Shown here piece after piece: positions 4,770 to 62,946 of a stretch of 64,000 nt of DNA. Under the pieces are notes generated by a model. The model was not told where the DNA came from, did not search any database, and saw nothing but the letters and a program-made list of their open reading frames with translations. A program made the position numbers and the translations under genes. Every line of letters starts with the position of its first letter. The first letter of the stretch is position 1. Source of the DNA: an uncultured bacterium (GTDB lineage Bacteria; Patescibacteriota; Minisyncoccia; UBA6257; 2-01-FULL-56-20); assembly GCA_963844965.1 (NCBI GenBank), contig CAWJQC010000004.1:41609-105608 (forward strand). Direction: 5' to 3'.

Positions 4770-5033
4770 ATGAGCAACAAAAAAGGGCATCGGATTGCAA
4801 AGGAAGTGAAGGCGGACATCCTCCGCCGCGTGAAGGAAGAAGGCGTTTCGGTGGCCCAAGCCGCGAAGGACCACGGCTTGCACGAGTCCACCATCTATAA
4901 CTGGCTCGGAGCCGGAGCGGCAGGCGCTCCCTCGTGGAGCGAGTTCTCCCGCCTGCAGAAGCAGAACCGCGAGCTCTTTGAGGTGGTGGGCGAGCTCACC
5001 GTGAAGCTCTCTCAGGCCCAAAAAAAGAGTTGA
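4770..5033 (+). CDS. IS3-family transposase OrfA (HTH)
   Basis: MSNKKGHRIAKEVKADILRRVKEEGVSVAQAAKDHGLHESTIYNWL is a helix-turn-helix of IS3/IS911 OrfA type, followed by a leucine-zipper-like tail. Confidence 0.85.
   Translation: MSNKKGHRIAKEVKADILRRVKEEGVSVAQAAKDHGLHESTIYNWLGAGAAGAPSWSEFSRLQKQNRELFEVVGELTVKLSQAQKKS
5020..5027 (+). promoter_or_regulatory. programmed -1 ribosomal frameshift site (A7G) giving OrfAB
   Basis: The run AAAAAAAG sits just before the orfA stop. Slipping by -1 reads ...QKKELTEKRDKS, continuous with OrfB. This is the canonical IS3-family arrangement. Confidence 0.75.
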
Positions 5034-5812
5034 CGGAGAAACGGGACAAGTCGGCCCTGGCCAGGGCCATGGGCGTCTCACGGGCATCGCTCTACTACGT
5101 TCCGAAACAGTACGCGAAGGATTGGGCATTCAAGATCCTGATCGAGGAAGAGCTGCGGCGCCATTCCTCGTACGGCTCGCGGCGCCTGGCGCAAGCCCTC
5201 CACGCGAACCGCAAACGGACCAGGCGTGTGATGAAGCTCTTTGGCATCAAGCCATACCGGAGGCGGGGCAAGAAATATCGTAAATCAAAGGCATCGCGGG
5301 CCTTTCCGAACCTCTTACTTGCCATCATGCCCTCGTACGCGAACCACGTCTGGGCAACCGATTTCACGGAGTTCCTGTATCGCGGCAAGAAAGTGTACGT
5401 GTCCACGATACTCGATCTTTTCACGAGACGATTGATGGGCGTCCATGTGGCGTTGCGGAAAGGATCGCCCCTCACGATACAGACCCTGGCCAACGCGCTT
5501 TTCCACCATCCGCATCCGGTCATCTTCCATTCGGACAACGGCAGCGAGTACAAGGCACGAGCGTTCACCGATACACTGGGGGACTGTGGCATCACGATCT
5601 CGCGGTCGCGGCCCGGTGCCCCATGGGAAAACGGCTACCAGGAATCGTTCTATGACAAGTTCAAGATTGACCTCGGTGATCCCAACCGGTTCGGGACCTT
5701 CGGCGAGCTCGTGGCGGAGATCTACAGCACCTTGTGGCAGTACAACCACACGCGGATCCACTCCGCCCTCAAGATGCCGCCGTCCGTGTTTGCCGAGAAG
5801 ATTGCGGCTTAA
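5030..5812 (+). CDS. IS3-family transposase OrfB (DDE/rve integrase core)
   Basis: WATDFTEF, HSDNGSEYKA and PWENGYQESFY are rve-domain DDE motifs. It lies in the -1 frame relative to orfA. Confidence 0.9.
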   Translation: MTEKRDKSALARAMGVSRASLYYVPKQYAKDWAFKILIEEELRRHSSYGSRRLAQALHANRKRTRRVMKLFGIKPYRRRGKKYRKSKASRAFPNLLLAIMPSYANHVWATDFTEFLYRGKKVYVSTILDLFTRRLMGVHVALRKGSPLTIQTLANALFHHPHPVIFHSDNGSEYKARAFTDTLGDCGITISRSRPGAPWENGYQESFYDKFKIDLGDPNRFGTFGELVAEIYSTLWQYNHTRIHSALKMPPSVFAEKIAA

Positions 5813-8027: not shown

Positions 8028-9906
8028 TTAAACGGTCCCTCGGGGTGACGCGCGGAACGCAGCCTCAACATCCAGGTCCTCCCAGCCGGCTTTCTTCAAT
8101 TCGCCGCGAATCACGTCGTCCACAAACGCGGCGGCGCGGGCGGCCCTGATATATTCCACGAGCTCCGGATTCTGGGAACCGGCTTGGGTTGATTTCACTT
8201 CCGCGGCCGGAGAAGCGGCGGTTGCGGCGTCCGCGCTAACTTGCCGCGCGGCTTCAGGGTTCGCCGCTGAAGCCGCTGAATTGTTTTTCTCCGCTTCTTC
8301 CCGCGTCGCCTCATGTTTTATAAGTTCTTTCTCTTCCGTCTCCAGCTTCACTATTTCCTCCTCCTCTTTTTTCATCCGCTTGCGAAGCATGACTACGACA
8401 AACGCCGCTATTATCAGAACCAACACTCCGCCGCCCGCGATAAGCCACGCGGTGAGTCCGACTCCGCTCAGCCGCTCCTTTATGACATCCCATGGCGTAT
8501 CAAGCGACCCGCCCGCGGCGATAAGCGCCGCGCACTGCTCTATATACGGGTCAGCGTATTTGTTTACGGAGAATTTCGCGTCGGAATTCTCGGCTATCTT
8601 GAATTGCTCCGTCGCTTTCTTGCACTGCTTGGCGTGCAGAAGCGCGAGACCCTGTTCCATTGAATCGGTGAAGCCGCTTGTATCGTTTTTCAGCGACTGT
8701 GCGTCAAGCGCGGCTTTCGCCAGTTCAACCGGAACGGCGGATGCGAAATTATCCCCTAAAATGTCGCTGAGCCCCGATTCAAATGTCACCAAACCAATGA
8801 CCTCTCCGTCAGCTCCGAAGAGCGGCCCTCCGCTTGAACCTTCGGAGATCTTCGCGTCCGATTGCAATATTTTGAAATCCTTATTTTGGGAATCTTTGAT
8901 GGCGGTTATCACTCCCTGTGTGAACGTCGGCTCAAGATAATCTTGCGACCCGATACTGGGCCGTACCCGGAAAGCCAAACACGTAAATTTTCTGGCCGAC
9001 AGCGGCCAACGCCGAAGCGCCGAGCTTCATGGCCGCGAGGTTACTTTCGCCAATCTTAAGAATAGCGACGTCCTTGTCGTCAAGGTTGTAGTTATCATTC
9101 ACGCTCAAAACCGTTGCCGGAAACGAATCTTTGATAAGTTCGGTGAGTTTTTGTTTCGTTGATGTCGGATTCAGCACGACGACCTCCCGCAAGATGTCAA
9201 AGCGGCTGTTGGCTTCCAGGGCGGATAAAATTTTCTTTCCATATTCTTCTCCCATGCTTTCCGCATCCAGCGAGTCAATCCCTTTATCTTTATAATACTT
9301 TTCCAAGTCCTGTATTTCATTCGGTTTCAAGGAGAACATTTCTTTGAATATCACCGACGTCATAGCCGCGCCGAGTATCGCCTGCCGCATGGTCTCTTCC
9401 GAAACAACATGGGAGTTTGTGAGGACCAGGCCGGATGGATTCACGACGAAACCGCTGCCCGCGAGATACTGCTCCGTGGAAGTGCCGTTAACGGCGCCTG
9501 ATTTCGGAAACGACACGGCAAACGTTCGGAGGTCAATGCTAAAATCGGGCACCGTTGAGGTTACCAGGAAATGCGTGAGCACCCGAACAATGGACGGCTT
9601 CGTTATGTCCGCCAATTCCTCTTCGCTCATCGCGAGCGGCTGCGGCGTGGGCATGCTCCAAAGATCGGAGAGCGACGCCGTCCCCGATCTCCCACCGCCG
9701 GGCAAACTGCGGAGAGCAACGGCGCCCAAAAACGCCGTGCTCACAAAAAGCGCGACCAAAAACAAAAAGAGCGGTAGCCATATCCGTCCACCTTCCCTAC
9801 CGTTGCCGATAAATGGCATGTATAAATTATAACAAACCCGGAATGAGCCTGGCACTTCACGACAACTTAAACGTGGGTCTGAATTAACTCGTTCAAATCC
9901 AGCCAA
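8028..9906 (-). CDS. trypsin-like (S1C/HtrA-like) serine protease with a C-terminal TM segment, split by one frameshift near 8950-8965
   Basis: The upstream ORF carries the His and Asp regions (GSGFVVNPSGLVLTNSHVV, DVAILKI). The downstream ORF carries the Ser motif (SEGSSGGPLF). The frames join at ...IYVFGFPG / SIGSQDYLEPTFTQGVI. Confidence 0.7.
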
Positions 9907-14512: not shown

Positions 14513-14608
14513 TAGAAAATAGTAAGTAGAAATTAGAAAATAGAATTTTGTCGGGATTTTCGGCGAAGTTCCGATTTCTATTTTCTATTTACTATTTTCT
14601 ACTTTCTA
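14513..14608. repeat. AT-rich low-complexity inverted repeat / bidirectional terminator hairpin (TAGAAA-word family)
   Basis: TAGAAAATAGTAAGTAGAAATTAGAAAATAGAA ... TTCTATTTTCTATTTACTATTTTCTA lies between convergent dnaE and the cytidylyltransferase gene. Related word repeats occur in many intergenic gaps. Confidence 0.6.
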
Positions 14609-15006
14609 TCTACGATATTGCTTTTATATCTATGCGGCTCGTGCGCCCTCAAAACAACCATCTTCGGCCGCCAACGAAATTCCTTGCGGTGATTTTTCAG
14701 GTCCTCTTTGAGCGCCACCTGGTCGTAACCCAAAGCGATAACGTCGGGCTTGTGCTTTTTCACGACCTCGTAAACGCCGAGTTCAGCGTCGCCGAGCGCG
14801 ACCTCGTCAACAAGAGGTTCTTTTCGCAGGTCGTCAATTCTCCGCGCGAGATTTCTCTGCGGCAGACGGCCCTTCAAGTACTCAGCCGTATGGTCCTGCG
14901 CGACTGCGACGAGCAAATAATGGCCGTATTCCCTGGCTTGTTTAAAAAATTGACGGTGACCTTCATGGATGCCGTCAAAAACGCCGAAGACCAGAACTTT
15001 TTTCAT
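14599..15006 (-). CDS. cytidylyltransferase-like (HxGH) nucleotidyltransferase
   Basis: MKKVLVFGVFDGIHEGHRQFFKQAR carries the GxFDxxHxGH nucleotidyltransferase motif, as in the RibL/TagD-like family. 135 aa. Confidence 0.6.
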   Translation of the reverse strand: MKKVLVFGVFDGIHEGHRQFFKQAREYGHYLLVAVAQDHTAEYLKGRLPQRNLARRIDDLRKEPLVDEVALGDAELGVYEVVKKHKPDVIALGYDQVALKEDLKNHRKEFRWRPKMVVLRAHEPHRYKSNIVDRK

Positions 15007-18144: not shown

Positions 18145-18232
18145 AATAGAAAATAGAATTTAGAAAGTAGAAAGTAGTAGGTAGTAGGAAGAAAAAACTG
18201 AAAATTTCTAAATTCTAATTTCTGATTTCTAA
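18145..18232. repeat. AT-rich low-complexity inverted repeat (TAGAAA/GTAGTAG words)
   Basis: AGAAAATAGAATTTAGAAAGTAGAAAGTAGTAGGTAGTAGG ... TTTCTAAATTCTAATTTCTGATTTCTA lies between the GT2 gene and map. Confidence 0.5.
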
Positions 18233-18276
18233 ACAATTAAAATTATAACACAAAAGAAACAGCTGAAATTCCACGC

Positions 18277-23656: not shown

Positions 23657-24097
23657 CTACTTTATTGTGCCGCCGGCTTTTTCAATCTTCTCCTTGGCGC
23701 TTTTTGATACCCCGATGCCTTCCACCGCAACCGGCACGGTAATTTCCCCGTCACCTAAGATTTTAACATCTCCCGGGTAATTCGCCTTCAAAAGTCCGCT
23801 TTGCGCCAAAAAATCCTTGTCCAGCAAAATTTGCTTCCCGCCGCTTCCGGCGACCTTCAGAACAAGCGACAAATCGTCAAGATTGAATATCGTAGGCTTG
23901 GAACTCTTCGGTTTGTTCCTAAAACCCCGGCGTTTGGGAATGCGCAAAATCAAGTCGCGCTCCGCTGGGCGAATCCTGTGGCCAGCCCTGGATTTTTGAC
24001 CCTTCTGTCCGCGTCCGGAAGTCGTGCCGCGCTTGCCGCCGCGGCCAATGCGCTGCGCCTTCTTGTGGCTTTTAACTTGTAGTTGATGCAGTTGCAT
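23657..24097 (-). CDS. rplO: 50S ribosomal protein L15
   Basis: RIGRGGKRGTTSGRGQKGQKSRAG; the position after S5 matches the expected order. Confidence 0.93.
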   Translation of the reverse strand: MQLHQLQVKSHKKAQRIGRGGKRGTTSGRGQKGQKSRAGHRIRPAERDLILRIPKRRGFRNKPKSSKPTIFNLDDLSLVLKVAGSGGKQILLDKDFLAQSGLLKANYPGDVKILGDGEITVPVAVEGIGVSKSAKEKIEKAGGTIK

Positions 24098-24562
24098 TTA
24101 GGCTTTAAGTTTCTTCAACGCTTCTATGGTCGCCAGGGCATTAGTCAGTTTATTTGGCGTTCTGCCGAGACATTTTGCCGTCGCGTCCTTTACGCCGGCC
24201 AAAGACAGCACAAATCTTACCGCCCCGCCCGCCCTAAGACCGTGCCCGGCCACGGCCGGTTTGAGCAATACCTCAGCCGCGCTGAACTTCGCCGTTACTT
24301 CGTGGGCTATCGTGCGGCCGTCCTTCAGATTCACTTTCAAAATATTTTTCTTCGCCGCCGACTTTGATTTGGCGATTGCCTGCTGGACATCCGCGCCCTT
24401 GGCAACCCCTATCCCGACTCTGCCCTTCTCGTCACCAATGACCAAAGTCGCCCGGAAACGGAATCTTTTGCCTCCGGCGACAACGCGCGTCACGCGGCGA
24501 AGGTCCAGAACCTTCTCCTTGAATTCCTCCCTTTTTGCGATTGTTTCTCTACGCTTGAACAT
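24098..24562 (-). CDS. rpsE: 30S ribosomal protein S5
   Basis: RRVTRVVAGGKRFRFRATLVIGDEKGRVGIGVAKG. Its stop directly abuts the rplO start, so no L30 gene lies between them. Confidence 0.93.
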   Translation of the reverse strand: MFKRRETIAKREEFKEKVLDLRRVTRVVAGGKRFRFRATLVIGDEKGRVGIGVAKGADVQQAIAKSKSAAKKNILKVNLKDGRTIAHEVTAKFSAAEVLLKPAVAGHGLRAGGAVRFVLSLAGVKDATAKCLGRTPNKLTNALATIEALKKLKA

Positions 24563-24574
24563 GTTGGCGTTAAA

Positions 24575-24700
24575 TTTCTAATATCTAATTTCTAATTTCT
24601 AAACAATATTTGAAATTCCAATGACAAAAACTTAAAATGGTCTGTTTTCAATTTGGGACTTAGAAATTGGGGTTTGTTTAGGATTTAGAAATTAGGAATT
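24575..24700. repeat. AT-rich low-complexity inverted repeat (TTTCTAA words)
   Basis: AAATTTCTAATATCTAATTTCTAATTTCTAAAC ... TTAGAAATTGG..TTTAGAAATTAGGAATTAGG lies between rpsE and rplR. Confidence 0.5.
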
Positions 24701-24707
24701 AGGGCTT

Positions 24708-25629: not shown

Positions 25630-25736
25630 TGATAACAAATGGAAAATGTAAATATCAAAATGTAAAATGACAACCCAAAATGCAAAAATTTTTAATTCTG
25701 AATTGTAATTTTGATTTTTGCATTTTAAATTTTACG

Positions 25737-26311: not shown

Positions 26312-26392
26312 GATTATAAATAAATTTTCAATTTTTAATTTTCAATTTTAAAATGTTTGGAAATTGTAAAATTGAGAATTATAAAATTGTTT

Positions 26393-29865: not shown

Positions 29866-30198
29866 TTATTTCTTGACCTCCTTTGCCGGCGCGGCAGCCG
29901 GTGCTCCAGCGACAGCGGCGCTCGCCTCCAACTCACGCTGCATCTTGCCGCCGTGCCGCGTGAACTTCCTCGTCGGCGCGAATTCTCCCAAGCGATGGCC
30001 GACCATTTCTTCGCTCACTTTAACCTCAATGAAGATCTTGCCGTTGTGAACGCCGAAAGTGAATCCCACCATTTCCGGTGAAATCTCCGAAGCCCGCGAC
30101 CATGTCTTAACAACCACCTTGTCGTCGGGCCTGAGTTTGGAAACCTTCTTAAGAAGTTTCGGGTCAACATAAGGACCTTTCTTTAGCGAGCGGCTCAT
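29866..30198 (-). CDS. rpsS: 30S ribosomal protein S19
   Basis: [19 protein letters not shown]...[17 protein letters not shown]. Confidence 0.95.
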
Positions 30199-30204
30199 AA
30201 TGAT

Positions 30205-30268
30205 AAATTTTCAATTTCCAATTTTCCAATTTCCAAACGTTTGGAAATTCTGAACTTGGAATTATTTT
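30205..30268. repeat. AT-rich low-complexity inverted repeat (CCAATTTCC words)
   Basis: TTTCCAATTTTCCAATTTCCAAACGTTTGGAAATTCTGAACTTGGAA lies between rpsS and rplB. Confidence 0.5.
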
Positions 30269-38949: not shown

Positions 38950-40132
38950 CCGCTCCTGCGCCGACCGTCTTGCCGCCTTCGCGGATGGCAAAACGCTGTT
39001 TTTCTTCAAGCGCGACCGGGAAATGAGTTTCACGGTGAGTTTAACGGTGTCGCCCGGCATGACCATTTCCATGCCTGCCGGCAAGGGTCACTTCGCCCGT
39101 AACATCGGTCGTCCTGATATAGAACTGCGGCTTGTAGCCGTTGAAGAACGGCGAGTGGCGGCCGCCTTCCTCTTTTGAAAGCACGTAAACCTCGCGCTCG
39201 AATTCCGTGTGCGGCGTGACGCTGCCCGGCTTCGCGACAACCTGCCCGCGCTCCACGTCTTCTTTCTTCAGGCCGCGGAGCAGAACGCCGACGTTGTCGC
39301 CCGCCATGCCTTCGTCCAAGAGTCTTATTGAACATTTCAATGCCCGTGACGACGGTCTTCTGCCGTCGGCCTGCAGGCCGACGATCTCCACTTCTTCGTT
39401 CACTTTCACCTTGCCGCGCTCCACGCGGCCGGTCACGACCGTGCCGCGTCCTTCAATCGAGAAGATGTCTTCGATCGGCATAAGGAACGGCTTGTCGAAG
39501 TCGCGGACCGGATCGGGAATGAATGTCATCCACCGCTTTGATAAGGTCCAAGATCGGTTTCGCGTCCGGGTCGTCGGCGATTTCGCGGCCAACGCTTTCA
39601 AAGCCGAACCGCGGATGATCGGAGTCGTGTCGCCCGGGAATTCGTATTTCTTCAAAAGCTCGCGGACTTCGGACTCAACGAGATCAATGAGTTCCGGATC
39701 GTCCACCTGATCGCACTTATTAAGAAACACGACGATGGTCGGCACGCCGACCTGGCGGGCAAGCAAAATGTGCTCGCGCGTCTGCGGCATCGGGCCGTCG
39801 GTCGCGGCGACGACCAAAATCGCGCCGTCCATCTGCGCGGCGCCCGTGATCATGTTCTTGATATAGTCGGCGTGTCCCGGCGCGTCAATGTGCGCGTAGT
39901 GGCGCTTCTCGGATTCGTACTCCGAATGGTGCAGGGCGATCGTGATGCCGCGCGCCTTTTCCTCCGGAGCGTTGTCAATTTGGTCCACTCTCTCTTCTTT
40001 CTTCGTCAGACCCTTCAAATGCAAAACGTGCATAATCGCGGCGGTCAGGGTCGTCTTGCCGTGGTCAACGTGGCCGATCGTGCCGATGTTCATGTGCGGC
40101 TTGGCCCGGTAGAATTTTTCTTTTTCAGCCAT
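38950..40132 (-). CDS. tuf: elongation factor Tu, with four apparent single-base indels
   Basis: The N-terminus is canonical ([53 protein letters not shown]). A compensating pair near 39515-39527 and 39585-39600 scrambles [21 protein letters not shown]. Two more, near 39075-39085 and 39015-39020, break the C-terminus (..[20 protein letters not shown] / [29 protein letters not shown]). Confidence 0.88.
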
Positions 40133-41436: not shown

Positions 41437-43541
41437 TTACCGTTTTTTGCCTTCGATAATCAACTGCGCAATGTTCTGCGGCACTGGCTCATAATGGTCA
41501 AATTCCATCGTGAACGCTCCCCTGCCTTGCGTCATGGAACGCAACTCGGTCGCGTAGCCGAACATTTCCGCGAGCGGAACTTTGGCGTCAATCACTTTCA
41601 CGTTGGGCCGGTCGGAAATTTCCTCAATCCTGCCGCGCTTGGAGTTCAAGTTGCCGCTCACCTCGCCCAAAAATTCTATCGGGATGATAACCTGAAGCTT
41701 CATTATCGGCTCCAATATGACCGGCTTCGCGCGCTTCGCCGCTTCCTGCAGGGCGATGGAGCCAGCAATTTTGAAAGCCGCCTCCGACGAGTCAACTTCA
41801 TGGAAAGAGCCGTCATAGAGCGAAACTTCAAGGTCGGTCATCGGGTAGTGGGCAACGACCCCCTTACTCAATGCTTCCACCACACCTTTTTCCACCGCCG
41901 GGATGAATTCGTTCGGAATGATCCCTCCCTGATATCGTCTATGAAAACAAATCCCTTGCCGCGCTCCAAGGACTTCACGCGCAGCCAGACATGTCCGTAT
42001 TGTCCGCGGCCGCCGGATTGCCTGATATATTTGCCTTCCGCCTCCGCTTCGCCCATAATCGTTTCTTTATAGGCAACCTGCGGCCGCCCCACCGAACCCT
42101 CAACACCGAACTCCCGCTTCATCCTGTCAACAATAATTTCCAGGTGCAACTCGCCCATGCCAGAAATAATCGTCTCGCCAGTTTCCAGGTCGCCCGCCAC
42201 GCGGAAAGTCGGGTCTTCTTCCGCCAAGCGGTGCAGGGCAATGCTCATTTTTTCCTGGTCGGCTTTCGTCTTCGGCTCAATGCGAATGCCGATCACCGGC
42301 TCGGGGAATATGATCTTCTCAAGCACTATCGGCGCGTCGGGACTGCAAAGCGTGTCGCCGGTCGTCGTATTCTTCAAACCGACGATCGCCGCGATATCTC
42401 CGGCATGCACTTCCTCCATTTCTTCGCGGTGGTTGGCGTGCATCCGCACCACGCGGCCGACACGTTCCTGCTGGTCCTTCTTGGAATTCAAAACGTACGT
42501 GCCGCGCTTCAAAACGCCGGAATAATTCCGGAAATAGGTTAAAGTGCCGACGTACGGGTCTGTCGCAACCTTGAAAGCCAGCGCCGAGAACGGCTCTTCG
42601 TCCTTGGGGTGCCGCACGATATCGGCGCCGCTCTTCGGGTCAATGCCCTTAACCGGAGGAAGGTCCGTCGGCGCGGGCAAATATTCCACAACCGAGTCAA
42701 GCATAAATTGCACGCCTTTGTTTTTCAGGGCCGAACCGCAAAGCACCGGCACAATTTTGTTGGCAATAACGGCTTTGCGCAAAACGCGGCGCAAATCTTC
42801 AATGTCAAGCTCAGTACCATCCAAATACTTGGTCATCAAGGCATCGTCATTGTCCACAATGCGTTCCACAAGTTCATGCCGCGCCTTCTTCACGTGCACT
42901 TTCATATTTTCCGGCATCGGAATTTCTGTAATCTTTTCGCCATGTTCACCCTCCGAGCCGTACGCCTTTTCGGTTAAGAGGTCTATCATTCCCACGAATT
43001 CACCCTCAAGGCCGATGTTCAACTGCAAAGGCAGTGCGTTCGGCGTGAGCCGTTCTTTGATTGACTGCAAACTTTTTTCAAAGCTCGCACCCAAGCGGTC
43101 AAGTTTGTTAATAAAGCAAATCCGCGGCACGTGGTACTCATCGGCATAGCGCCAGTTCGTTTCCGACTGCGGCTCAACACCTGCGACGCCATCAAAGACG
43201 ACAACCGCGCCGTCCAAAACGCGGAGCGAACGCTTCACCTCCACCGTAAAGTCAATGTGCCCCGGCGTGTCAATCAAATTTATCATATGCTCAAATTTTT
43301 TGTCGCCCTTGCGGTAAGTCGGAATCCAGAACGCCGTCGTTGCGGCGGAAGTAATCGTAATTCCCCTCTCACGTTCCTGCTCCATCCAATCCATCACCGT
43401 GTCGCCCGTGTGCACCTCGCCGATTTTGTGACTGACGCCCGTATAAAAAAGCACCCGTTCGCTCACGGTGGTTTTGCCGGCATCTATATGGGCGATGATG
43501 CCGATGTTACGGACCTTCTCGACAGGATACATTCTAGGCAT
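41437..43541 (-). CDS. fusA: elongation factor G, split by one frameshift near 41920-41933
   Basis: [35 protein letters not shown]. At ..FIDDIR the frame slips; adding one G in atcaGGGaGGGatc restores [30 protein letters not shown], which joins the two track ORFs. Confidence 0.9.
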
Positions 43542-46221: not shown

Positions 46222-46294
46222 GTCCCTGTAGCTCAACGGATAGAGCGTGTGGCTTCGAACCACAAGGTTGCAGGTTCAAATCCTGCCAGGGACG
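46222..46294 (+). tRNA. tRNA-Arg (anticodon TCG)
   Basis: GTCCCTGTAGCTCAACGGATAGAGCGTGTGGCTTCGAACCACAAGGTTGCAGGTTCAAATCCTGCCAGGGACG, with loop CTTCGAA. It is bracketed by the perfect inverted repeat CCCTCCCACCTTTG / CAAAGGTGGGAGGG. Confidence 0.9.
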
Positions 46295-46321
46295 CAAAGG
46301 TGGGAGGGTGAAGATATCATA

Positions 46322-46367
46322 TGTGGCTTCGAACCACAGGTTCCAGGTTCGAGTCCTGGCGAGGGCA
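46322..46367 (+). pseudogene. 3' fragment of a different tRNA-Arg(TCG) (anticodon arm to acceptor 3' strand)
   Basis: TGTGGCTTCGAACCACA is identical to the anticodon arm of the neighbouring gene. It is followed by a different T-arm (CCAGGTTCGAGTCCTGG) and acceptor strand (CGAGGGC). There is no 5' acceptor or D-arm. Confidence 0.7.
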
Positions 46368-46464
46368 CACACAACATTTCGTATCGCGGCATCGTGGGGG
46401 CCGACGCTCTAGCGCGACCCCGAGAGGCCTACCGATACGGAATATCGTCCTCCTTATTTCTCTA

Positions 46465-46832
46465 TTAAGAGCCGGCAAAAATACTTTTGATAAGGCTTGT
46501 AATGCCGCCTGCTATCAGCACGATCACAAAACCGACTGCCGCATACGTAAGGGTCTTCTTCCCTTTCGAAAATTTTTCAGGATCGCCAGCCGCCGTCATC
46601 ATTTGAAACCCGCCGACAAGCACCATTATACTTGTGAGCGGCGCTGCAATATCGTAAAAAAGAAATCCCGCCACACTATTCGCGACGGACACCAAGCTGC
46701 CCCCCCATTCGTACAATTTGGATCGAACGGATTAAAAAGTTGGTTGGGAGGGCACGCGGCAAAAGCTAACTTCGCGACGGTTAAGGCGCTGACTGTTATT
46801 AAAATCTTTGTTGTGCGGCGGATAATATGCAT
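46465..46832 (-). CDS. small two-TM pilin-like protein (TrbC/VirB2-like T4SS-pilin type seen in CPR), frameshifted in a C7/G7 run at ~46697-46705
   Basis: A signal-like N-terminus (MHIIRRTTKILITVSALTVAKLAFA) is in one frame. SLVSVANSVAGFLFYDIAAPLTSIMVLVGGFQMMTAAGDPEKFSKGKKTLTYAAVGFVIVLIAGGI is in the next. The family assignment is from memory of the pattern. Confidence 0.45.
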
Positions 46833-46883
46833 ATGGATTATTATAGCATACGAGATAGCGTGGCAGAAGCCCATTTTGTTTAG

Positions 46884-48221
46884 CTATTTCTGCAAGCTCA
46901 GAATTTTATTCCTGAACGTCAACTTACTCTTGAAGCAAGATAGCAATTCGCGTTTCTCGACCGTGCTGCCCTTTTTGAGAAGATATTTTGCGTACGTTTT
47001 AAGGTCAATTTCTTTAGTGGCCGCTTTCGATCCTTCTCCCAAGACATCGTTCGCGAATTTGCGATATCGTTCCATCTCGTCTTCGAATTTCTTCTGCATC
47101 CCAATCTCACTGATATCCATCTCGTCAATGATAGCGAGAAGTTGAGCGATCAATTCCTCTTCGCGAATGTATCCGCACTTGCAATCCTTATCTTTCGAGC
47201 GTGAGCATCCATAGTACACGTACCGCGCCGTCGTTCCATCCTTGTGCGCCTTATATTTCTCGCACGCACTGATGCCCGATCCGCATAGGCCGCACGAGAT
47301 CAGTTTCGTAAACGAAAATTCCTTTATCTCCGACCTGATGACAAAATCTCGGTGCAGCTGCTCCTGTACTTTATCGAACAGCTCCCGCGAAATGATTGCT
47401 TCGTGCTTGCCGCTGTACCAGTTACCGCTCTTCAGTGGATACTCAAAGATGCCGCAGTAAAATGGATTTTTGAGGATGATATAAATATTGGATAACGAAA
47501 GCACTTTCCCATTCTTTGTTCTGAATTTGATTTCCGACTTCAGCCAATGATAAAGCTTCCGGCCCGACCATTGTTCGTCGGCGACTTTCTGGAGCATTTG
47601 CTTGATGACGGGCGCTCGCAGGGGATCAATGATAACTTCACAAGGACGGTCGGTGCTCTTCTCGTTAAGATACCCTGTCGGTGCGATAGACGGACGCAAA
47701 CCTTGTTCGCACCGCATCCGTAATCCGCGCTTCACGTTTTCCGATTTGTTATCATTCTCAAGTTTCGCTTGGCTGCACAAAATCATCAACATGAATTTCT
47801 CGCTCGGCGAGTTCGTGAATTTCTGGCTGAAGGTTCTGATCTCGATAAGTAATTTTTGATCCATCAAGTCCACCAAGCCGCCAAGGTCGCCCGCGTTGCG
47901 GCTCAAGCGATCCGGCGCCCATGTAAGGATACCGTTGAATTCGCCGGAACGAATATCAATAAGCAACTCGTTAAAAATTTTTCGCTGGCCGACAGCTTTT
48001 GCGGAATGGCTTTCCTTTCTAACTTCGGCGATCTCAAGGTTATCGCGCTCGGCGATTTTCAGCATCTCCTTTATCTGACTATCAATGGAAAGCACTTGCT
48101 GTTCCTCGCTCTCCGTACTTTTCCTCGCATAGAGGCAGTATTTTATTTTTATCGCTTCGGCCTTTGTCGCAGAAACGCCCGACTGATCCCAGCCCTTTGG
48201 TATATTTGTTATTTTCTCCAT
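46884..48221 (-). CDS. large serine recombinase (resolvase domain, recombinase domain, zinc ribbon)
   Basis: YCLYARKSTESEEQQVLSIDSQ (catalytic Ser region), LTWAPDRLSRN, later CGLCGSGISAC...YYGCSR. About 445 aa from MEKITNIPKGW. Confidence 0.85.
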   Translation of the reverse strand: MEKITNIPKGWDQSGVSATKAEAIKIKYCLYARKSTESEEQQVLSIDSQIKEMLKIAERDNLEIAEVRKESHSAKAVGQRKIFNELLIDIRSGEFNGILTWAPDRLSRNAGDLGGLVDLMDQKLLIEIRTFSQKFTNSPSEKFMLMILCSQAKLENDNKSENVKRGLRMRCEQGLRPSIAPTGYLNEKSTDRPCEVIIDPLRAPVIKQMLQKVADEQWSGRKLYHWLKSEIKFRTKNGKVLSLSNIYIILKNPFYCGIFEYPLKSGNWYSGKHEAIISRELFDKVQEQLHRDFVIRSEIKEFSFTKLISCGLCGSGISACEKYKAHKDGTTARYVYYGCSRSKDKDCKCGYIREEELIAQLLAIIDEMDISEIGMQKKFEDEMERYRKFANDVLGEGSKAATKEIDLKTYAKYLLKKGSTVEKRELLSCFKSKLTFRNKILSLQK

Positions 48222-48377
48222 ACCTAAGGGATGCCGCAACGGCGGAAGGAGTCCAGAGCATCCTTGTCGGTAACTCAAAACTCGATATCAGGCGACGAAG
48301 GGGCAAAGAAGGCAAGCAGAGTGATTTCCCCAGCCACCCTCTTTAAGACCATTTATAAACGAGCTATAATAATTCTA

Positions 48378-53623: not shown

Positions 53624-56305
53624 ATGAGTGGGATAAAAATAAATCTTTCTCTCAGCGAAATCCCAGGCATCGGCCCGCGTTTTCTGGAACGGCTGGGAAA
53701 ACTCGGCATAAAAACCGTCCGTGATCTCATTTATCATTTTCCGGCCCGCTACGAGGATTTCTCCCAGATATACAAAATTTCCGACGTTGAGCCGGGGGAA
53801 CAGGTAACAATACGTGGCGTTGTTGAAGACACCAAACTGCGGCGGACTTGGAGAAAACACATGACAATCGCCGAAGCCCTGATCCGCGACGATTCCGGAA
53901 CGATACGCGCCATCTGGTTCAACCAACCATATGTTTTGAACACTCTGCGGGTCGGGCGCACGGCGAATTTCGCAGGCAAAATATCCATATCGGACGAGGA
54001 CGAAATTTATTTGAGCCACCCGGCTTATGAAATCGTCGGCAGTCGGGAGTCGGGAACGGAGAAGCAAGAAACAAAACATACAGCGCGGCTCGTCCCCATT
54101 TATCCCGAAACGCGCGGCCTCACATCCAAGGGGTTGAGATATCTGATCCAGCCAATTCTGAAAAACAGCGAACAGCTGGAGGAATGGCTGCCGCCGGAAG
54201 TTCTGCGCGAAAATAATTTTCCCGAAATAAACCTTGCGCTCAGATCCATACACTTCCCCGAAAAAACCGAGGATGCTCTTGTCGCGAAAAAACGCTTCAC
54301 TTTTGAAAACCTGTTCCTGCTGCAACTCGCCAATCTTGAACAAAAATTGAAACTCGCGCGCGAAAAAGCGCCAGTGATCAAAACCGACATAGAACACCTG
54401 AAAAAAATGATCTCGGAACTGCCATACGAACTCACGTTTTCGCAAAAGAAATCATTGTGGGAAATCATCCAGGACCTCGCCAAAAAACAGCCGATGAACC
54501 GCCTGCTCCAGGGCGACGTGGGCTCCGGCAAGACGGTTGTCGCGGCGCTCGCCGCGGTAATTACCGCGGAAAACGGGCTGCAGACCGCGTTTATGGCGCC
54601 AACCGAGGTTCTCGCGAGACAGCATTTTGAAACATTGAAAAAATTATTCGCCGGAATTCCCTCGATCCATCAACCCGTAGTTGGGCTTCTCACGTCAAGC
54701 GAAGCAAAAATCCTCTACGCGACAGACCTTGAATCAAAAATCAAAAAACCGGAGTTGCAGGAAAAAATAAAAAACGGCGAGGTAAAAATAGCCATCGGCA
54801 CGCACGCTTTGATACAAAAAGACGTGGCGTTCGGCAATCTTGCCTTTATCATCATTGACGAACAGCATAGATTCGGCGTCTCACAACGAGCTGCGCTCGT
54901 TCGCGGACAGACGCAGAATGATAATACGCGGACAGACGCTGAACAACTACTATACGAAAAAACGACGTTTGAGATAAGAAAAAGTCTGTTTGAGGTGAGA
55001 AAACAACTGGGCCTTGGTCATAAAGAAGTGGTGTATCAGAAAGCATTGGAGGAGGAGTTCAAGAAATCCGGTGTAATATTTGAGAAAGAAAAGAAAATTC
55101 CTGTCGTTTATAACAAGAAAAAGATTGGCGTTTATCAACCGGATTTTGTCATAGATAATGAAGTAATTTTGGAACTTAAGGCTCTTCCCTTTATCGGCGG
55201 CATCGAAAAAAAACAGCTGTGGAATTATTTGAGGGGTTCGGATTACAAACTCGCGCTTATGGCAAACTTTGGACCGGAAAGATTATCCATAGAGCGGGTA
55301 GTATACGATATTGCGCGGAGTCGGCGGCTGTCAGCGTCCGGTCAGCAACTGTCCGCGCCTATCCCCCACCTCCTCTCAATGTCCGCCACGCCAATCCCAC
55401 GCACGCTCATGCTCACCGTCTTCGGCGATTTGGATATATCGCTCATCACCGAACTTCCCGCCGGCAGAAAAAATATCGTAACAAAAATAATCCCCCCACG
55501 GGGCAGGAGCGAAGCCTATGAATTCATCCGCGGCGAAGTGAGGGCCAGCCGGCAGGTTTTTGTCATCTGCCCCCGCATTGACAAACCGCAGACAGGCGCA
55601 GACCACACGCAGACAAACGCAGACAAGACACAGACAGACGCAGACAATTTTCAGCGGCTGTCTGCGTCAAGTCAGCGACTGTCCGCGTTAAGTCCACGTA
55701 AGTCCGCGTTAGTGTGGGAAGTAAGATCCGTGAAAGAAGAATTTGAAAAATTATCCAAGAAAATTTTTCCGGATTTGCGCGTCGCCATGCTCCACGGCCA
55801 GCTCAAGCCAAAAGAAAAAGCGGGTATCATGAAGGACTTCCGCAACTACAAAATAGATATTCTCGTTTCAACTTCCGTCGTGGAAGTTGGCGTGGACGTG
55901 CCGAACGCAACAATAATGATGATTGAAGGCGCCGATCGCTTCGGGCTGGCTCAGATCTACCAATTCCGCGGACGCGTGGGGCGCGGCGAACACCAATCCT
56001 ATTGCTTCCTGTTCACGGATTCGTCCGCCAAAACTACGCGCGAGCGGCTGCAGGCCGTCCTTGAAGCCAAGAACGGCTTTGAGCTCGCCGAGAAGGACCT
56101 GAAGATCCGCGGTCCCGGCGAATTCCTCGGCACGGCGCAGACCGGCTTTCCCGACACGGCGATGAGCGGCCTCATGAACCCGGAGCTCGTGAAAGCAAGC
56201 CGCGAAGCGGCGGCAAAAATCGTCCAAAAAGATCCGCTTTTCAAAAATTATCCGCTCCTGAAAACCAAATTAAACGAGTTCCGGAAGGAAATCCACTTGG
56301 AGTAG
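53624..56305 (+). CDS. recG: ATP-dependent DNA helicase RecG carrying two in-frame insertions
   Basis: Wedge/OB N-terminus; motif I GDVGSGKT; motif II [11 protein letters not shown]; motif III [9 protein letters not shown]; later [15 protein letters not shown] and QFRGRVGRG. 893 aa against ~680-700 expected. The excess is accounted for by 54908-55357 and 55589-55708. Confidence 0.92.
   Translation: [893 protein letters not shown]
54908..55357 (+). other. 450-nt in-frame insertion in recG encoding a GxxExxY-family (PD-(D/E)XK-like) domain flanked by inverted word repeats
   Basis: [87 protein letters not shown] matches the GxxExxY pattern. The flanks are cgcggacagacgcagaat..tacgcggacagacgctga and the reverse-complement-like ctgtcagcgtccg..ctgtccgcgc. 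Confidence 0.75.
55589..55708 (+). repeat. 120-nt in-frame palindromic insertion in recG (solo copy of the same word-repeat arms)
   Basis: cagacaggcgcagaccacacgcagacaaacgcagacaagacacagacagacgcagaca attttca gcggctgtctgcgtcaagtcagcgactgtccgcg. It translates as [40 protein letters not shown]. Confidence 0.7.
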
Positions 56306-59959: not shown

Positions 59960-60178
59960 AACGACCTCCTCAAAAAGATTTAATTTAATTGCGCAAAGCA
60001 ATTTGGCTACTCCCAAGAATAACCAAATCGCTTTGCGCAAGCAATATATTCATTTTTCAAGATACTTGCCTATCTATGCTAATTATAGCACAAATAAACA
60101 ACCTGTCAACCCCCACCTTTTTCCGAAAAGGTGGGGGTCAAGTGGCCGCGGCGGCTGACCCGCTGAAGCGACGATACC

Positions 60179-60438
60179 CTACAACTCATAAATCTCATCT
60201 CGCTTGCCTATTTTGAGTATATAAATTGCGCCATTTCTAACGTCAAATACCAACCTATAATCGCCCACGCGAAATCTGAACTCCCCGCCGCGGTTGTCAG
60301 CCAAACGCTTGGCAAACCTCAACGGATTATCCTCTGACGCATAAATGCGCATCTTCTTTGCTTTGCGATGCGCACTTGAACTTCTCTCGGCAGGGATTCC
60401 AACTGCTTAGCCGCCCGCTTGGCATAGAAAATCTTCGT
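60179..60438 (-). pseudogene. decayed copy of the RelE/ParE toxin gene
   Basis: About 97% identical by eye to 62204..62458, but the start ATG is mutated to ACG (cgt at 60436-60438) and a 5-nt insertion (ctttgctttgcg versus cttcgcg) shifts the frame. Confidence 0.7.
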
Positions 60439-60614
60439 TACAATCCCAACTTCTTAAACAGCTTATCCTGCGATATAGTTTTTTTTGCCTTGATTTCTTT
60501 TCTCGCTTCGCGGACATCCAAAATATGCGCGAGGTAGCCAAGCAGGGCGCCGAAGCGAGCATCCGTTTTCCTCAAACGCTCGTATTCTTGTTTTGGTATA
60601 GTAACCGTGGTCAT
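60438..60614 (-). CDS. antitoxin (copy 1) of the RelE/ParE pair, intact
   Basis: MTTVTIPKQEYERLRKTDARFGALLGYLAHILDVREARKEIKAKKTISQDKLFKKLGL, identical in protein to copy 2. Confidence 0.6.
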   Translation of the reverse strand: MTTVTIPKQEYERLRKTDARFGALLGYLAHILDVREARKEIKAKKTISQDKLFKKLGL

Positions 60615-60737
60615 ATAAGTGCATTATAGTAAACCGGCGGCGGATATCAACCCCCACACCAAACGAGGACTTTCCGGGTCCCGCGCCGAAGGCGCATGTC
60701 CTCGTTAGGATTCTCGATAGGAATTGCCGGTGCGACA

Positions 60738-60956
60738 TTACAACAGAGAAACAAACTGCTCCGGTGCAAGTTCGGCATCACGTAGTATTTTGCGAAGCAG
60801 AGAAACATCCACTGCCTTATAGTTCGGCACCGTTACGGATTTCTTGCCGGGACAGGACAAACGAATATGGCTGCCGCGCTGGCGAACTTCGCGATAACCG
60901 AACTTTGCCAAAGCAGAAATAATCTTGCGGCCGGAGATAACAGGCAGTTTAGACAT
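60738..60956 (-). CDS. hicA: HicA-family mRNA-interferase toxin
   Basis: 72 aa; ISGRKIISALAKFGYREVRQRGSHIRL... is the YcfA/HicA pattern. It lies downstream of a HicB-like gene. Confidence 0.7.
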   Translation of the reverse strand: MSKLPVISGRKIISALAKFGYREVRQRGSHIRLSCPGKKSVTVPNYKAVDVSLLRKILRDAELAPEQFVSLL

Positions 60957-60962
60957 GACGAG

Positions 60963-61214
60963 CTATACGGCAATTGTATGTAAGCTGATTTCCTGCGGCT
61001 TGTAATCCTGCAAAATTTGCCTGGACTGCTTTTCTTCCAAAATAAGCATTATAACCTCTCGGATATTGCGGAGCGCCTCGTCAATCGTCTTGCCCTGCGC
61101 ATAACATCCTTCAAAAACAGGGCATTCAACAACATAAAACCCGCTCTCTCCTTTTTCGGCGAGGAGCGGCAATTGCCGGCCGCGGCCTATAAATTTTGCT
61201 CTTGTTCTTGCCAT
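60963..61214 (-). CDS. hicB: HicB-family antitoxin (UPF0150 fold)
   Basis: GFYVVECPVFEGCYAQGKTIDEALRNIREVIMLILEE is the typical HicB N-domain motif. Confidence 0.7.
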   Translation of the reverse strand: MARTRAKFIGRGRQLPLLAEKGESGFYVVECPVFEGCYAQGKTIDEALRNIREVIMLILEEKQSRQILQDYKPQEISLHTIAV

Positions 61215-61493
61215 AGTGAAATAATACCACAACCCTTTAGGCGGTCAAGTGAAATTGGTAGCCAAAATCGCCCTGCCACACTAAAACCCCTTTAAATTCT
61301 TCCAGCAAGCAAACTGCCCGCGCTTTTCCGCGCGGGCTTTTTTTAAATCCCCGCTGAATACCCAGCCGAGACGTGGCGGAGACGAAACAGTGAGATATCT
61401 TTCTTTCCTCGCTTCGCAAGAAATCTTGCCGTTCCTCCGCGAGCCAATATCTACGGCCCCCGGCTGGAGGGATGAAATGAAATGGACGCTCAA

Positions 61494-61688
61494 CTATTTC
61501 TGTTTAATCTCTCTAATACCGAGGTCCCGGCAGATTTTCTTTGCCAAAAATTCATTGATTTCGCTATGGCGGGGCACCGTAGACGAACGTCTGACTTTGG
61601 GGTTAAAAAAGACGCTGTGCTTGGCGCCTTCCCGAACAAAAACACACCCCTCATGCTCAATGTGGCAAATTAAAACAACTCGCTTCAT
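61494..61688 (-). CDS. hicA: HicA-family toxin (second pair)
   Basis: 64 aa; REGAKHSVFFNPKVRRSSTVPRHSEINEFLAKKICRDLGI matches the HicA pattern (GSHxxf......tvPrH.eI...l...I.k.lgi). Confidence 0.65.
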   Translation of the reverse strand: MKRVVLICHIEHEGCVFVREGAKHSVFFNPKVRRSSTVPRHSEINEFLAKKICRDLGIREIKQK

Positions 61689-61691
61689 TCA

Positions 61692-61916
61692 TCAAACTGT
61701 AAGCAGCTGCCGCGTCAACTTCTGTTTGCCGGCCTCGGCATCAGCCAGCGCCCGGTTGGTTTCCAAAATTAGCCGAAGCGCTTCTTTAAGATTTTCTTTT
61801 ACTTCCTTCACGCTTTTCCCTTGAGTATTTACCCCGGGCACTTCCTCTATCCAGCCGACATACCATTTACCGCTTTTTTTAAACACGGCTGTAAATTTGT
61901 ATTTCATGACTGCCAT
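61692..61916 (-). CDS. hicB: HicB-family antitoxin (second pair)
   Basis: MKYKFTAVFKKSGKWYVGWIEEVPGVNTQGKSVKEVKENLKEALRLILE. Confidence 0.65.
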   Translation of the reverse strand: MAVMKYKFTAVFKKSGKWYVGWIEEVPGVNTQGKSVKEVKENLKEALRLILETNRALADAEAGKQKLTRQLLTV

Positions 61917-62203
61917 ACATTTAAGATAATCCCAAAGCATGTAGCTGTCAACTCCTCTCAACTCCCGAGAAAACCCAGATGGCGAGCTTCTCCCTGCCTC
62001 GATAGGGTAGAAAAACAACTCAAACAGCCCAACGAAATTCGTTGGGCTGGATTTTTTTAACCAATGGCGTCACCCGCCGTTGAATTCCTTAATATCTTTT
62101 GGCGAACACCGTTTAAACTACCTGTCAACCCCCACCTTTTTTCCGAAAAGGCGGGGGTCAAGCGGCCGCGGCGGCTGACCCGCTGAGCTGAAGCGACGAT
62201 ACC

Positions 62204-62458
62204 CTACAACTCATAAATCTCATCTCGCTTGCCTATTTTGAGTATATAAATTGCGCCATTTCTAACGTCAAATACCAACCTATAATCGCCCACGCGAAAT
62301 CTGAACTCCCCGCCGCGGTTATCAGCCAAACGCTTGGCAAACCTCAACGGATTATCCTCTGACGCATAAAAGCGCATCTTCTTCGCGATGCGCATTTGAA
62401 CTTCTCTCGGCAGGGATTCCAACCGCTTAGCCGCCCGCTTGGCATAGAAAATCTTCAT
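62204..62458 (-). CDS. RelE/ParE-family toxin (intact copy)
   Basis: 84 aa; ...GGEFRFRVGDYRLVFDVRNGAIYILKIGKRDEIYEL is the typical RelE/ParE C-terminal pattern. Its ATG overlaps the antitoxin stop (TAATG). Confidence 0.75.
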   Translation of the reverse strand: MKIFYAKRAAKRLESLPREVQMRIAKKMRFYASEDNPLRFAKRLADNRGGEFRFRVGDYRLVFDVRNGAIYILKIGKRDEIYEL

Positions 62459-62634
62459 TACAATCCCAACTTCTTAAACAGCTTATCCTGCGATATAGTT
62501 TTTTTTGCCTTGATTTCTTTTCTCGCTTCGCGGACATCCAAAATATGCGCGAGGTAGCCAAGCAGGGCGCCGAAGCGAGCATCCGTTTTCCTCAAACGCT
62601 CGTATTCTTGTTTTGGTATAGTAACCGTGGTCAT
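62458..62634 (-). CDS. antitoxin (copy 2) of the RelE/ParE pair
   Basis: 58 aa, the same sequence as copy 1, translationally coupled to the toxin. Confidence 0.6.
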   Translation of the reverse strand: MTTVTIPKQEYERLRKTDARFGALLGYLAHILDVREARKEIKAKKTISQDKLFKKLGL

Positions 62635-62678
62635 ATTAAGTGCATTATAGCAAACCGGCGGCGGATGTCAACCCCCAC

Positions 62679-62738
62679 ACCAAACGAGGACGCGCGCCTT
62701 CGGCGCAGGACCCGGAAAGTCCTCGTTTGGTGTGGGGG
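62679..62738. repeat. 20-bp perfect-stem hairpin (CCCCCACACCAAACGAGGAC ... GTCCTCGTTTGGTGTGGGGG)
   Basis: A perfect inverted repeat around a 28-nt loop. The loop is present in the opposite orientation in the copy-1 region (60671-60697). Confidence 0.8.
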
Positions 62739-62946
62739 TAAATTATGCCGAAAAAGCCGGAAGGAAAGATGCGATCTATGTTTCTCCCGCAAGAATACCC
62801 CCGCCGCAGGCGGGGGATGAATTGCGGTTCGAGAAACATAAACCCCGCCGATGGCGGGGTGAACTACCACCTAACATGCTGCATGTGCTAAGTATTTCGT
62901 GCGCAGCACGGCAGTTGAGATACCACCGCTGTGAGGCGGTGGTAGT

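Follow-up and report, generated by a model that had tools for sequence, protein, structure and literature searches.

The long hairpin that stands upstream of a toxin-antitoxin operon, and that occurs twice, with opposite loops, in the 64,000-nucleotide stretch of DNA analyzed here (the window), is best explained as a copy of a small, non-autonomous, MITE-like palindromic mobile element resembling the Rickettsia palindromic elements (RPEs). We put the probability of this reading at about 0.7. The flipped loop would then reflect two copies, in opposite orientations, of a small selfish palindromic element that is found widely among uncultured bacteria, often in frame within essential genes, and nothing suggests an on/off switch. 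The idea of an invertible segment, put forward by a sequence-only reading of the same DNA, was partly supported: inversion across the stem arms is a plausible historical cause (8 of 31 family copies are flipped), whereas ongoing switching found no support. What appears to be a genetic switch is here something more ordinary, namely two palindromic element copies with identical arms, and the pattern of a hairpin with a flipped loop is by itself no ground for reading phase variation. The analysis drew on 64 kb of this genome together with a single further assembly.

The two hairpin copies and their toxin-antitoxin island

Copy 2 is a complete palindromic element at 62671..62739 (no strand assigned), as indicated by a covariance model match, a repeat search and its fold energy. 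The left arm CCCCCACACCAAACGAGGAC (62672-62691) and the right arm (62719-62738), its perfect complement, pair over 20 nt, and an extra A/T pair extends the stem to 21 bp (62671-62739). They enclose a loop, or inner module, of 27 nt, GCGCGCCTTCGGCGCAGGACCCGGAAA (62692-62718). The perfect 20-bp stem described by the sequence-only reading was confirmed by inspection of the sequence and by a repeat finder. Its end at 62738 was correct and its start, given as 62679, was 7 nt off, since the arm begins at 62672. The fold energy of copy 2 was -56.7 kcal/mol (z -7.6). On the plus strand the element is flanked by TCAA / TAAA, only three of the four positions being duplicated.

Copy 1 is a truncated element in the opposite orientation (60650..60709, no strand assigned), and shuffled sequences reached its fold energy equally well. 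Its left arm (60651-60670) is identical to that of copy 2. It is followed by the inverted inner module (60671-60697) and by a 9-12-nt remnant of the right arm, GTCCTCGTT(AGG) at 60698-60709, which is the sole part left of an arm already noticed to have diverged. The copy 1 loop is the reverse complement of the copy 2 loop with 24 of 27 positions matching, so that the relationship stands with three mismatches in place of the earlier estimate of about two. The repeat finder reported the stretches 60650-60709 and 62680-62739 as an inverted match of 60 nt with 93% complementarity, and one segment is thus indeed present both ways round within the contig. The loops are reverse complementary beyond chance, as the arm pattern and the loop pattern were each expected to match 0 times in 100 shuffles. 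Moreover, the 12-nt non-palindromic tail of the loop, AGGACCCGGAAA compared with the reverse complement GGGACCCGGAAA, matched at 11 of 12 positions, showing that the inversion is not an artefact of a small palindrome within the loop. A second contig for the copy 2 locus was not found by exact look-up with the toxin, the S74-domain ORF and two small ORFs.

All genes of the island surrounding the hairpins lie on the minus strand. A cassette of ~575 bp is present as a direct repeat, at 60097..60670 (no strand assigned; repeat finder and alignment) and, ~98% identical, at 62117-62691. The direct repeat ends exactly where arm meets loop, and the hairpins form its upstream edge. The operon of cassette copy 2 (62204..62634, minus strand) encodes a 58-aa antitoxin (62458-62634) and an 84-aa ParE-family toxin (62204-62458; Pfam PF05016 at 1.4e-8). 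The copy 1 operon (60179..60614, minus strand) consists of the antitoxin gene (60438-60614) and a toxin pseudogene, inactivated by a change of the start codon from ATG to ACG and by a 5-nt insertion. The antitoxin ORF is 100% identical between the cassette copies over 177 nt, and that of copy 1 looks like an orphan antitoxin retained by selection or gene conversion. Two hicBA operons, recognized as ORFs and by Pfam, lie between the cassettes (60738..61910, minus strand), the hicA stop (60738) and the truncated copy 1 arm being 28 nt apart.

The hairpin was rightly placed directly upstream of the antitoxin-toxin operon, and its arm adjoins the -35 box. In copy 2 the operon promoter is TTGACA-16-TG-TATAAT (12/12; 62644..62671, minus strand), and its -35 box begins at the last base of the element. 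The promoter of copy 1 (60623..60650, minus strand) is slightly decayed (TTGATA, TG lost). The suggestion that loop orientation could affect expression was not borne out: the sigma-70 promoter TTGACA-16-TATAAT lies wholly outside the inverted 27 nt, and a promoter scan of the loop found no promoter-like motif on either strand. Between the cassettes, the promoter region beside the loop differs by two substitutions and one indel in 36 nt. Divergence amounts to ~1.7% for the whole cassette and to 3/27 for the loop.

Four pieces in the island were the only sequences with family ends in the 64-kb window, and all four adjoin -35 boxes. Two of them are minis. TCAA / CCCCCACC-TTTTTCCGAAAA-GGTGGGGG / TCAA (60106..60141, no strand assigned; hairpin 60110-60137, 28 nt) has perfect 4-nt direct repeat flanks (TCAA), and its end on the minus strand adjoins a 12/12 promoter (TTGACA at 60109..60104). 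Judged from sequence features, as its length is below the reach of the covariance model, it is a probable member of the element family; comparable 27-28-nt minis with 4-nt duplications occur at loci L017, L040 and L044. The other mini hairpin lies in the duplicated cassette (62125..62161, no strand assigned; hairpin 62129-62157). It has one arm mismatch (GGCGGGGG) and TCAA on both sides, and the TTGACA -35 box that it adjoins lacks a good -10 box.

Only two homologues of the antitoxin were found, with 62% and 57% identity, and the hairpin was absent upstream of both. From this we deduced that the toxin-antitoxin cassette does not, as such, include the hairpin. Upstream of the island, ~200 nt between the element and the S74-domain gene (62740-62946) contain no credible ORF. 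This spacer holds GC-rich hairpins at 62798-62816, 62842-62860 and 62921-62944, two of them with T-rich tails on the minus strand, which may be stacked terminators or the remains of lost cassettes.

A dispersed family of elements with the same ends

The arm 20-mer GTCCTCGTTTGGTGTGGGGG had 50 exact matches in JGI metagenome contigs, with ~2 estimated by chance, and every match was an end of one palindromic element whose common form has ~74 nt. The terminal inverted repeats of the family are CCCCCACACCA(N)AACGAGGAC / GTCCTCGTTTGGTGTGGGGG. Within the window, copy 2 has them in both arms, and copy 1 in one complete arm and in 9-12 nt of its second arm. The 74-nt form consists of a 20-bp outer stem with an extra base in one arm, followed by a mini-hairpin of 4-5 bp (e.g. 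TGAC-TTC-GTCA), ATTTT, a GC-rich mini-hairpin of 5-7 bp and TT. When 31 unique copies were aligned, the outer stem was almost invariant and the inner hairpins kept their pairing via 3-11 double changes per pair. Such compensatory change hints at a single-stranded intermediate. Element sizes range from 27 to 140 nt and comprise 27-28-nt minis, the usual 74-nt form and versions of 100-140 nt with other inner sequence. The GC content of the family host contigs is 31-46%, that of the window 50%.

Both window copies represent a less common, 67-nt subtype that has one inner hairpin. Their inner module has only the GC-rich hairpin (GCGCC-TTC-GGCGC) and the 12-nt tail, and the pair of mini-hairpins (h1 and h2) was not found in it. 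They resemble the single-hairpin subtype represented by L027 3770-3899, L026 and L035 3871-3937. The loop of copy 1 begins with AT, as in the L027 3770-3899 element, and that of copy 2 with GC.

A covariance model, R1, was built from the 31 unique family copies, the family being defined from L011-L060. R1 found ~60 sites in 330 kb of family loci, among unrelated genes and spacers. Copy 2 (62672-62738) was matched with 57.6 bits (E 4e-11) on the minus strand and with 52.6 bits on the plus strand. Copy 1 gave weak local matches of 16.5 bits on the plus strand (E 0.14) and 12.8 bits on the minus strand (E 1). The better strand for copy 1 is thus opposite to that for copy 2, a weak preference for opposite orientations.

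The flanks of the elements pointed to insertion events. Perfect 4-nt direct repeats flanked 22 of 55 unique copies, and 14 more matched at three of four positions. After permutation of the flanks, the mean number of perfect repeats was 3.8 and the maximum 11. Among the 55 copies, none had a flank repeat reaching 5 nt. The target profile was YNNR (Y at -4, R at -1), mostly TNNA, with TTGA among the two commonest duplications. Element ends adjoined TTGAC in 10 of 110 cases compared with 0.46 expected from YNNR sites at the same loci, an excess of ~20x, and eight of these ten ends have a -10-like box TAnnnT at 16-17 nt. Because insertion in a -35 TTGA regenerates TTGACA downstream, an insertion of this kind would be harmless and would survive.

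About half of the copies reside in genes. Of the 55 copies, 27 are situated in ORFs with a minimum length of 100 aa; they are free of stop codons, and for nearly all of them the length plus 4 is divisible by 3. As 74 + 4 = 78 nt correspond to 26 codons, the usual form can survive in frame within genes. According to Pfam, the element-bearing proteins are unrelated and include LeuRS, UvrB, Mfd, GatB, trigger factor, TyrRS, UvrC and PGK, as well as a UMP kinase-type protein (two copies), L18, an IscS-type protein, Dak2/DegV, TatD, RsmH, KsgA, a Mur ligase and DUF763. The insert adds ~26 residues to LeuRS, UvrB, Mfd, GatB and L18 with the reading frame intact, and peptides such as PHTKRGQGAEGAKIDEVSPRYGVGV would represent it in LeuRS, UvrB or L18, if translated. 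The ribosomal protein L18 of locus L023 carries the element, and the L18 of the window aligned to it with a 23-aa gap at the element position. No strain-level pair of an empty and a filled site was found.

Several arrangements at the family loci were also observed. Two elements are located in one UMP-kinase-type gene (L038 948-1889), two lie 4 nt apart (L035 3793-3937), a mini is nested in a full copy within uvrC (L040 643-728), and L058 1976-2129 holds a tandem pair. At L033 7726-7833 (= L014 2166-2273), arms CCCCCACACC ... GGTGTGGGGG surround a complete tRNA-Thr(CGT) gene without a 4-nt duplication. This could be a cargo tRNA, or the arms could serve like a processing stem.

As expected of a MITE, the element is small and non-coding, it has 20-bp terminal repeats and no room for a transposase, the duplication is of fixed length, and many dispersed copies lie at unrelated sites. 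No parent insertion sequence sharing these terminal repeats turned up in the ~390 kb searched, which included the window. Likewise, in 325 kb of family loci no autonomous insertion sequence with matching ends was detected among repeat pairs of 250-4000 nt with matching duplications and a transposase-size ORF. The window contains an IS3-family insertion sequence at 4770-5812, with an 87-aa orfA and a 260-aa orfB carrying an rve domain, and its ends are unlike those of the palindromic element.

Additional searches returned the following. Rfam models at the gathering threshold identified only RNase P and tRNAs in the window, and scans by E-value, covering the island and one typical copy of the family, yielded only noise. 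Searches of genome contigs with both arms and a variable gap retrieved only unrelated Bacteroidota/Pedobacter repeats and two unrelated hairpins. A 23-mer of loop plus arm had 0 matches in metagenome contigs, three scans of viral sequences had 0 matches, and a 47-aa query carrying the element peptide had no word matches among proteins. No description of the element was found in the literature within the limited library covered, and the family is apparently undescribed so far. The repeats from L002, L003, L004, L007 and L008 (Bacteroidia, Pedobacter), GTCCTCGTTGCAAACGAGGAC ... GTCCTCGTTTGCAACGAGGA, form an unrelated family that has an 11-mer in common with the arm by coincidence of the search pattern.

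Among known systems, the RPEs came closest. As outlined in PMC10969869 with reference to Ogata et al. (2000), RPEs are short palindromic repeats that lie in frame in unrelated housekeeping genes and also between genes. Judged from that outline, the two families have in common that they are palindromic, dispersed in the genome, inserted in frame without stop codons so as to add a peptide, and present in intergenic positions too. By the same outline they differ in sequence and host, which are unrelated, and in length, the 74 nt found here being about half of the roughly 100-150 nt of RPEs. Clear 20-bp terminal inverted repeats, exact 4-bp duplications, covarying inner hairpins and a strong association with -35 boxes likewise appear, on that account, to be particular to the new family. 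We therefore treated the family as an analogue of RPEs and not as a member, set apart by size and host composition. It seems to be their counterpart in uncultured environmental bacteria. If it is confirmed as undescribed, it could help to trace gene transfer and the dynamics of genomes in lineages that are poorly known, and serve as a natural experiment on the tolerance of essential proteins for insertions.

Correia elements, a MITE of Neisseria, are 69-157 bp long and bounded by inverted repeats, have a target duplication, and have been reported to undergo inversion (PMC2649163, PMC10969869). They too form hairpins, very often lie 5' of genes at sigma-70 promoters and have length variants with a directional core. 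Unlike them, the present element duplicates 4 bp (YNNR) and not TA, the promoter beside it belongs to the target whereas Correia elements carry promoter boxes inside, and in-frame residence in essential genes is the rule and not the exception. Small 'flip-flop' inversions of plastid hairpins are a further parallel: in related sequences a stem-bounded loop is found either way round (Kelchner & Wendel 1996; PMC6824564), and the inversion is ascribed to recombination or template switching in the stem, without a dedicated recombinase (PMC6824564). In that case, ordinary non-mobile hairpins are compared between species, whereas here the element is mobile and the two states occur in paralogous copies on one contig.

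Origin of the flipped loop and competing explanations

In the reading that we prefer, the stem arms would be the 20-21-bp terminal inverted repeats of the element and the loop its inner module. The element would insert at YNNR, mostly TNNA, and duplicate 4 bp. TTGA would be a favoured or tolerated target, which would account for the many copies ending exactly at a -35 TTGACA. Because both arms are identical, reversing the element gives what seems to be an unchanged hairpin whose loop is inverted, and for a dispersed element of this kind either orientation is to be expected. For the pair in the window, we give about even odds to a history of one insertion, one duplication and one flip, in which the order of the last two events is one that we infer. 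A single insertion upstream of the ParE-type cassette would have been followed by duplication of cassette and element together, with the breakpoint within the distal arm. The inner 27 nt would then have flipped once, either by recombination across the arms or by template switching within the molecule.

The orientation of the inner module was compared across the family. Relative to this module, 22 of the 31 unique copies have the extra base in the 5' arm and 8 have it in the 3' arm; 1 lacks it. Most of the eight flipped copies carry the linker variant ATTTA, which points to rare flips that were then inherited and spread, and not to frequent switching. At eight orthologous family loci from different metagenomes, the orientation was identical.

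Some findings speak against the element reading. No autonomous insertion sequence with matching ends came to light in the family loci or the window, the window copies are of the rarer subtype and have flanks that duplicate only three of four positions, and a purely double-stranded cut-and-paste mechanism leaves the compensatory changes of the inner hairpins unexplained. A broader proposal is put forward tentatively: an undescribed and widespread 74-nt family in uncultured AT-rich, possibly CPR/Patescibacteria, bacteria might move as a folded single strand, generate 4-bp YNNR duplications, be sized to the gene frame, home to the TTGA of -35 boxes, occasionally flip its inner part and carry cargo such as a tRNA gene. 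For single-strand mobility we cite the Y-shaped fold, the covarying inner hairpins and the C-GAA-G-type triloops on one strand.

The two orientations might also have arisen without any flip, which we regard as a plausible but less probable course. Each cassette could have received its own element by an independent insertion at the same -35 TTGA site, or a cassette could have recombined through its 21-bp arm with a resident element of opposite orientation downstream of hicA. The strong enrichment of the -35 TTGA as a landing site would fit this course, as would the perfect TCAA duplications of both window minis at another -35 box and the AT start that the copy 1 loop shares with the L027 element, copy 2 starting with GC. 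The 3/27 loop differences exceed the cassette average of ~1.7% and mildly favour two separate source copies, but the adjacent promoter is about equally diverged, so that loop divergence does not decide the history. Two insertions at the identical nucleotide would be needed, yet no other family copy lies in the remaining 60 kb, and the truncation of the distal arm demands an extra event. Under either history, the two orientations would represent a state fixed in the past rather than a regulatory switch. That the arms keep recombining and flip the loop repeatedly to modulate toxin-antitoxin expression is very improbable, even though both orientations occur in one contig, the hairpin touches the -35 box, flipped inner modules are known in the family, inversion of Correia elements has been reported in Neisseria (PMC10969869) and the window encodes a large serine recombinase (46884-48278). 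The promoter lies entirely outside the loop, with no promoter-like site inside on either strand, and copy 1, which lacks most of one arm, cannot flip back. A segment of 27 bp between 21-bp repeats is, to our knowledge, far below any known recombinase-driven invertible segment, and 27 bp offer too little length for a synapsed recombinase reaction. No recombinase gene adjoins the hairpins; those encoded in the window are limited to the large serine type at 46.9 kb and the IS3-family transposase at 5 kb. Within several kb of the hairpins there are only toxin-antitoxin pairs and S74-domain proteins, and the serine recombinase, 14 kb away, sits beside a tRNA-Arg gene, the usual location of an integrase. 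Divergence of the loops by 3 nt also counts against switching, as do the unchanged orientation of copy 1 in a second assembly and the agreement of the eight orthologous loci from different samples, and the ATTTA linker of most flipped copies suggests old inherited flips. The switches fimS and hin and the Bacteroides invertons also have an inverted-repeat-flanked segment beside a gene in two orientations, but they measure ~100-1000 bp, contain the promoter, rely on a dedicated recombinase and occur in mixed orientations at a single locus. The present hairpin lacks the first three of these features, and for copy 1, compared in two assemblies, a single orientation was seen.

A host cis-acting structure kept for its function, such as a transcription insulator or terminator or an RNase III/processing stem, would make orientation irrelevant, as only the stem would matter. 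We consider this improbable. The very stable stem, the compensatory change that maintains the inner hairpins, the position between convergently read units and directly upstream of promoters, and the same arms flanking a tRNA-Thr gene like a processing stem are all compatible with it, but there is no T-run after the stem on either strand and no Rfam family match, half of the copies lie in frame within coding sequences of unrelated essential genes, and the 4-bp duplications mark insertion events. Least credible of all is an assembly artefact, in which a de Bruijn graph crossed the palindrome loop wrongly in one of two collapsed repeat copies. The contig does derive from a metagenome, with both copies in a 98%-identical repeat, and small-k graphs can be misled by perfect 21-bp inverted repeats. 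Against this, the loops differ at three positions and are hence distinct sequences, and copy 1 is truncated in one arm and bordered by unique sequence (hicA). In the Logan assembly of run ERR10755942 (L001), moreover, copy 1 was base-for-base identical with unchanged orientation, and the ACG start codon of its toxin was found there as well. This agreement, taken with the three loop differences, argues against mis-orientation during assembly.

Three further classes of hairpin were considered and rejected. The hairpin is not an intrinsic terminator: its stem is followed by TAAATTATG on the plus strand and TTGACATCC on the minus strand, neither with a T-run, and a terminator scan did not report the long stem. 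Integron attC sites have an RYYYAAC / GTTRRRY core at the base, a uniform orientation within the array and intI nearby. Here the base of the stem is CCCCC/GGGGG without core sites, the copies are oppositely oriented, and no tyrosine integrase or intI was among the window ORFs scanned against Pfam. A REP/RAYT-type repeat was dismissed because the 4-bp duplications are variable and do not represent a fixed target.

Further observations in the window

After a tRNA-Arg gene (46222-46295) come a partial tRNA-like repeat (46307-46359) and the gene for the 464-aa large serine recombinase (46884-48278). This arrangement (46222-48278) is the signature of an integrated element. The RecG helicase ORF (53624-56305) encodes a PD-(D/E)XK_3 nuclease domain (aa 447-558) between the helicase lobes, and it also contains, in frame, a 115-nt imperfect palindrome rich in GCAGACA repeats (55580-55694).

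AT-rich, low-complexity, long inverted repeats, TAGAAAATAG / AATTTCTAA, occupy many spacers, several of them between ribosomal-protein genes (14513-14609, 18148-18233, 24578-24702, 25637-25732, 26323-26385 and 30197-30265). A similar AT-rich inverted-repeat sequence stands upstream of the antitoxin homologue in L009.

Some core genes are apparently split or shortened (within 41437-43541, 8028-9906 and 39041-40132). EF-G is spread over two overlapping ORFs (557 and 152 aa), a trypsin-like protease is divided into two ORFs, and EF-Tu has only 363 aa with a partial domain 3. These cases may be frameshifts, assembly indels or real pseudogenes. In the region 23657-24562, L30 is missing from between the ribosomal protein genes S5 and L15, S5 running to 24098 and L15 beginning at 24097. 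This adjacency fits CPR/Patescibacteria and is not diagnostic.
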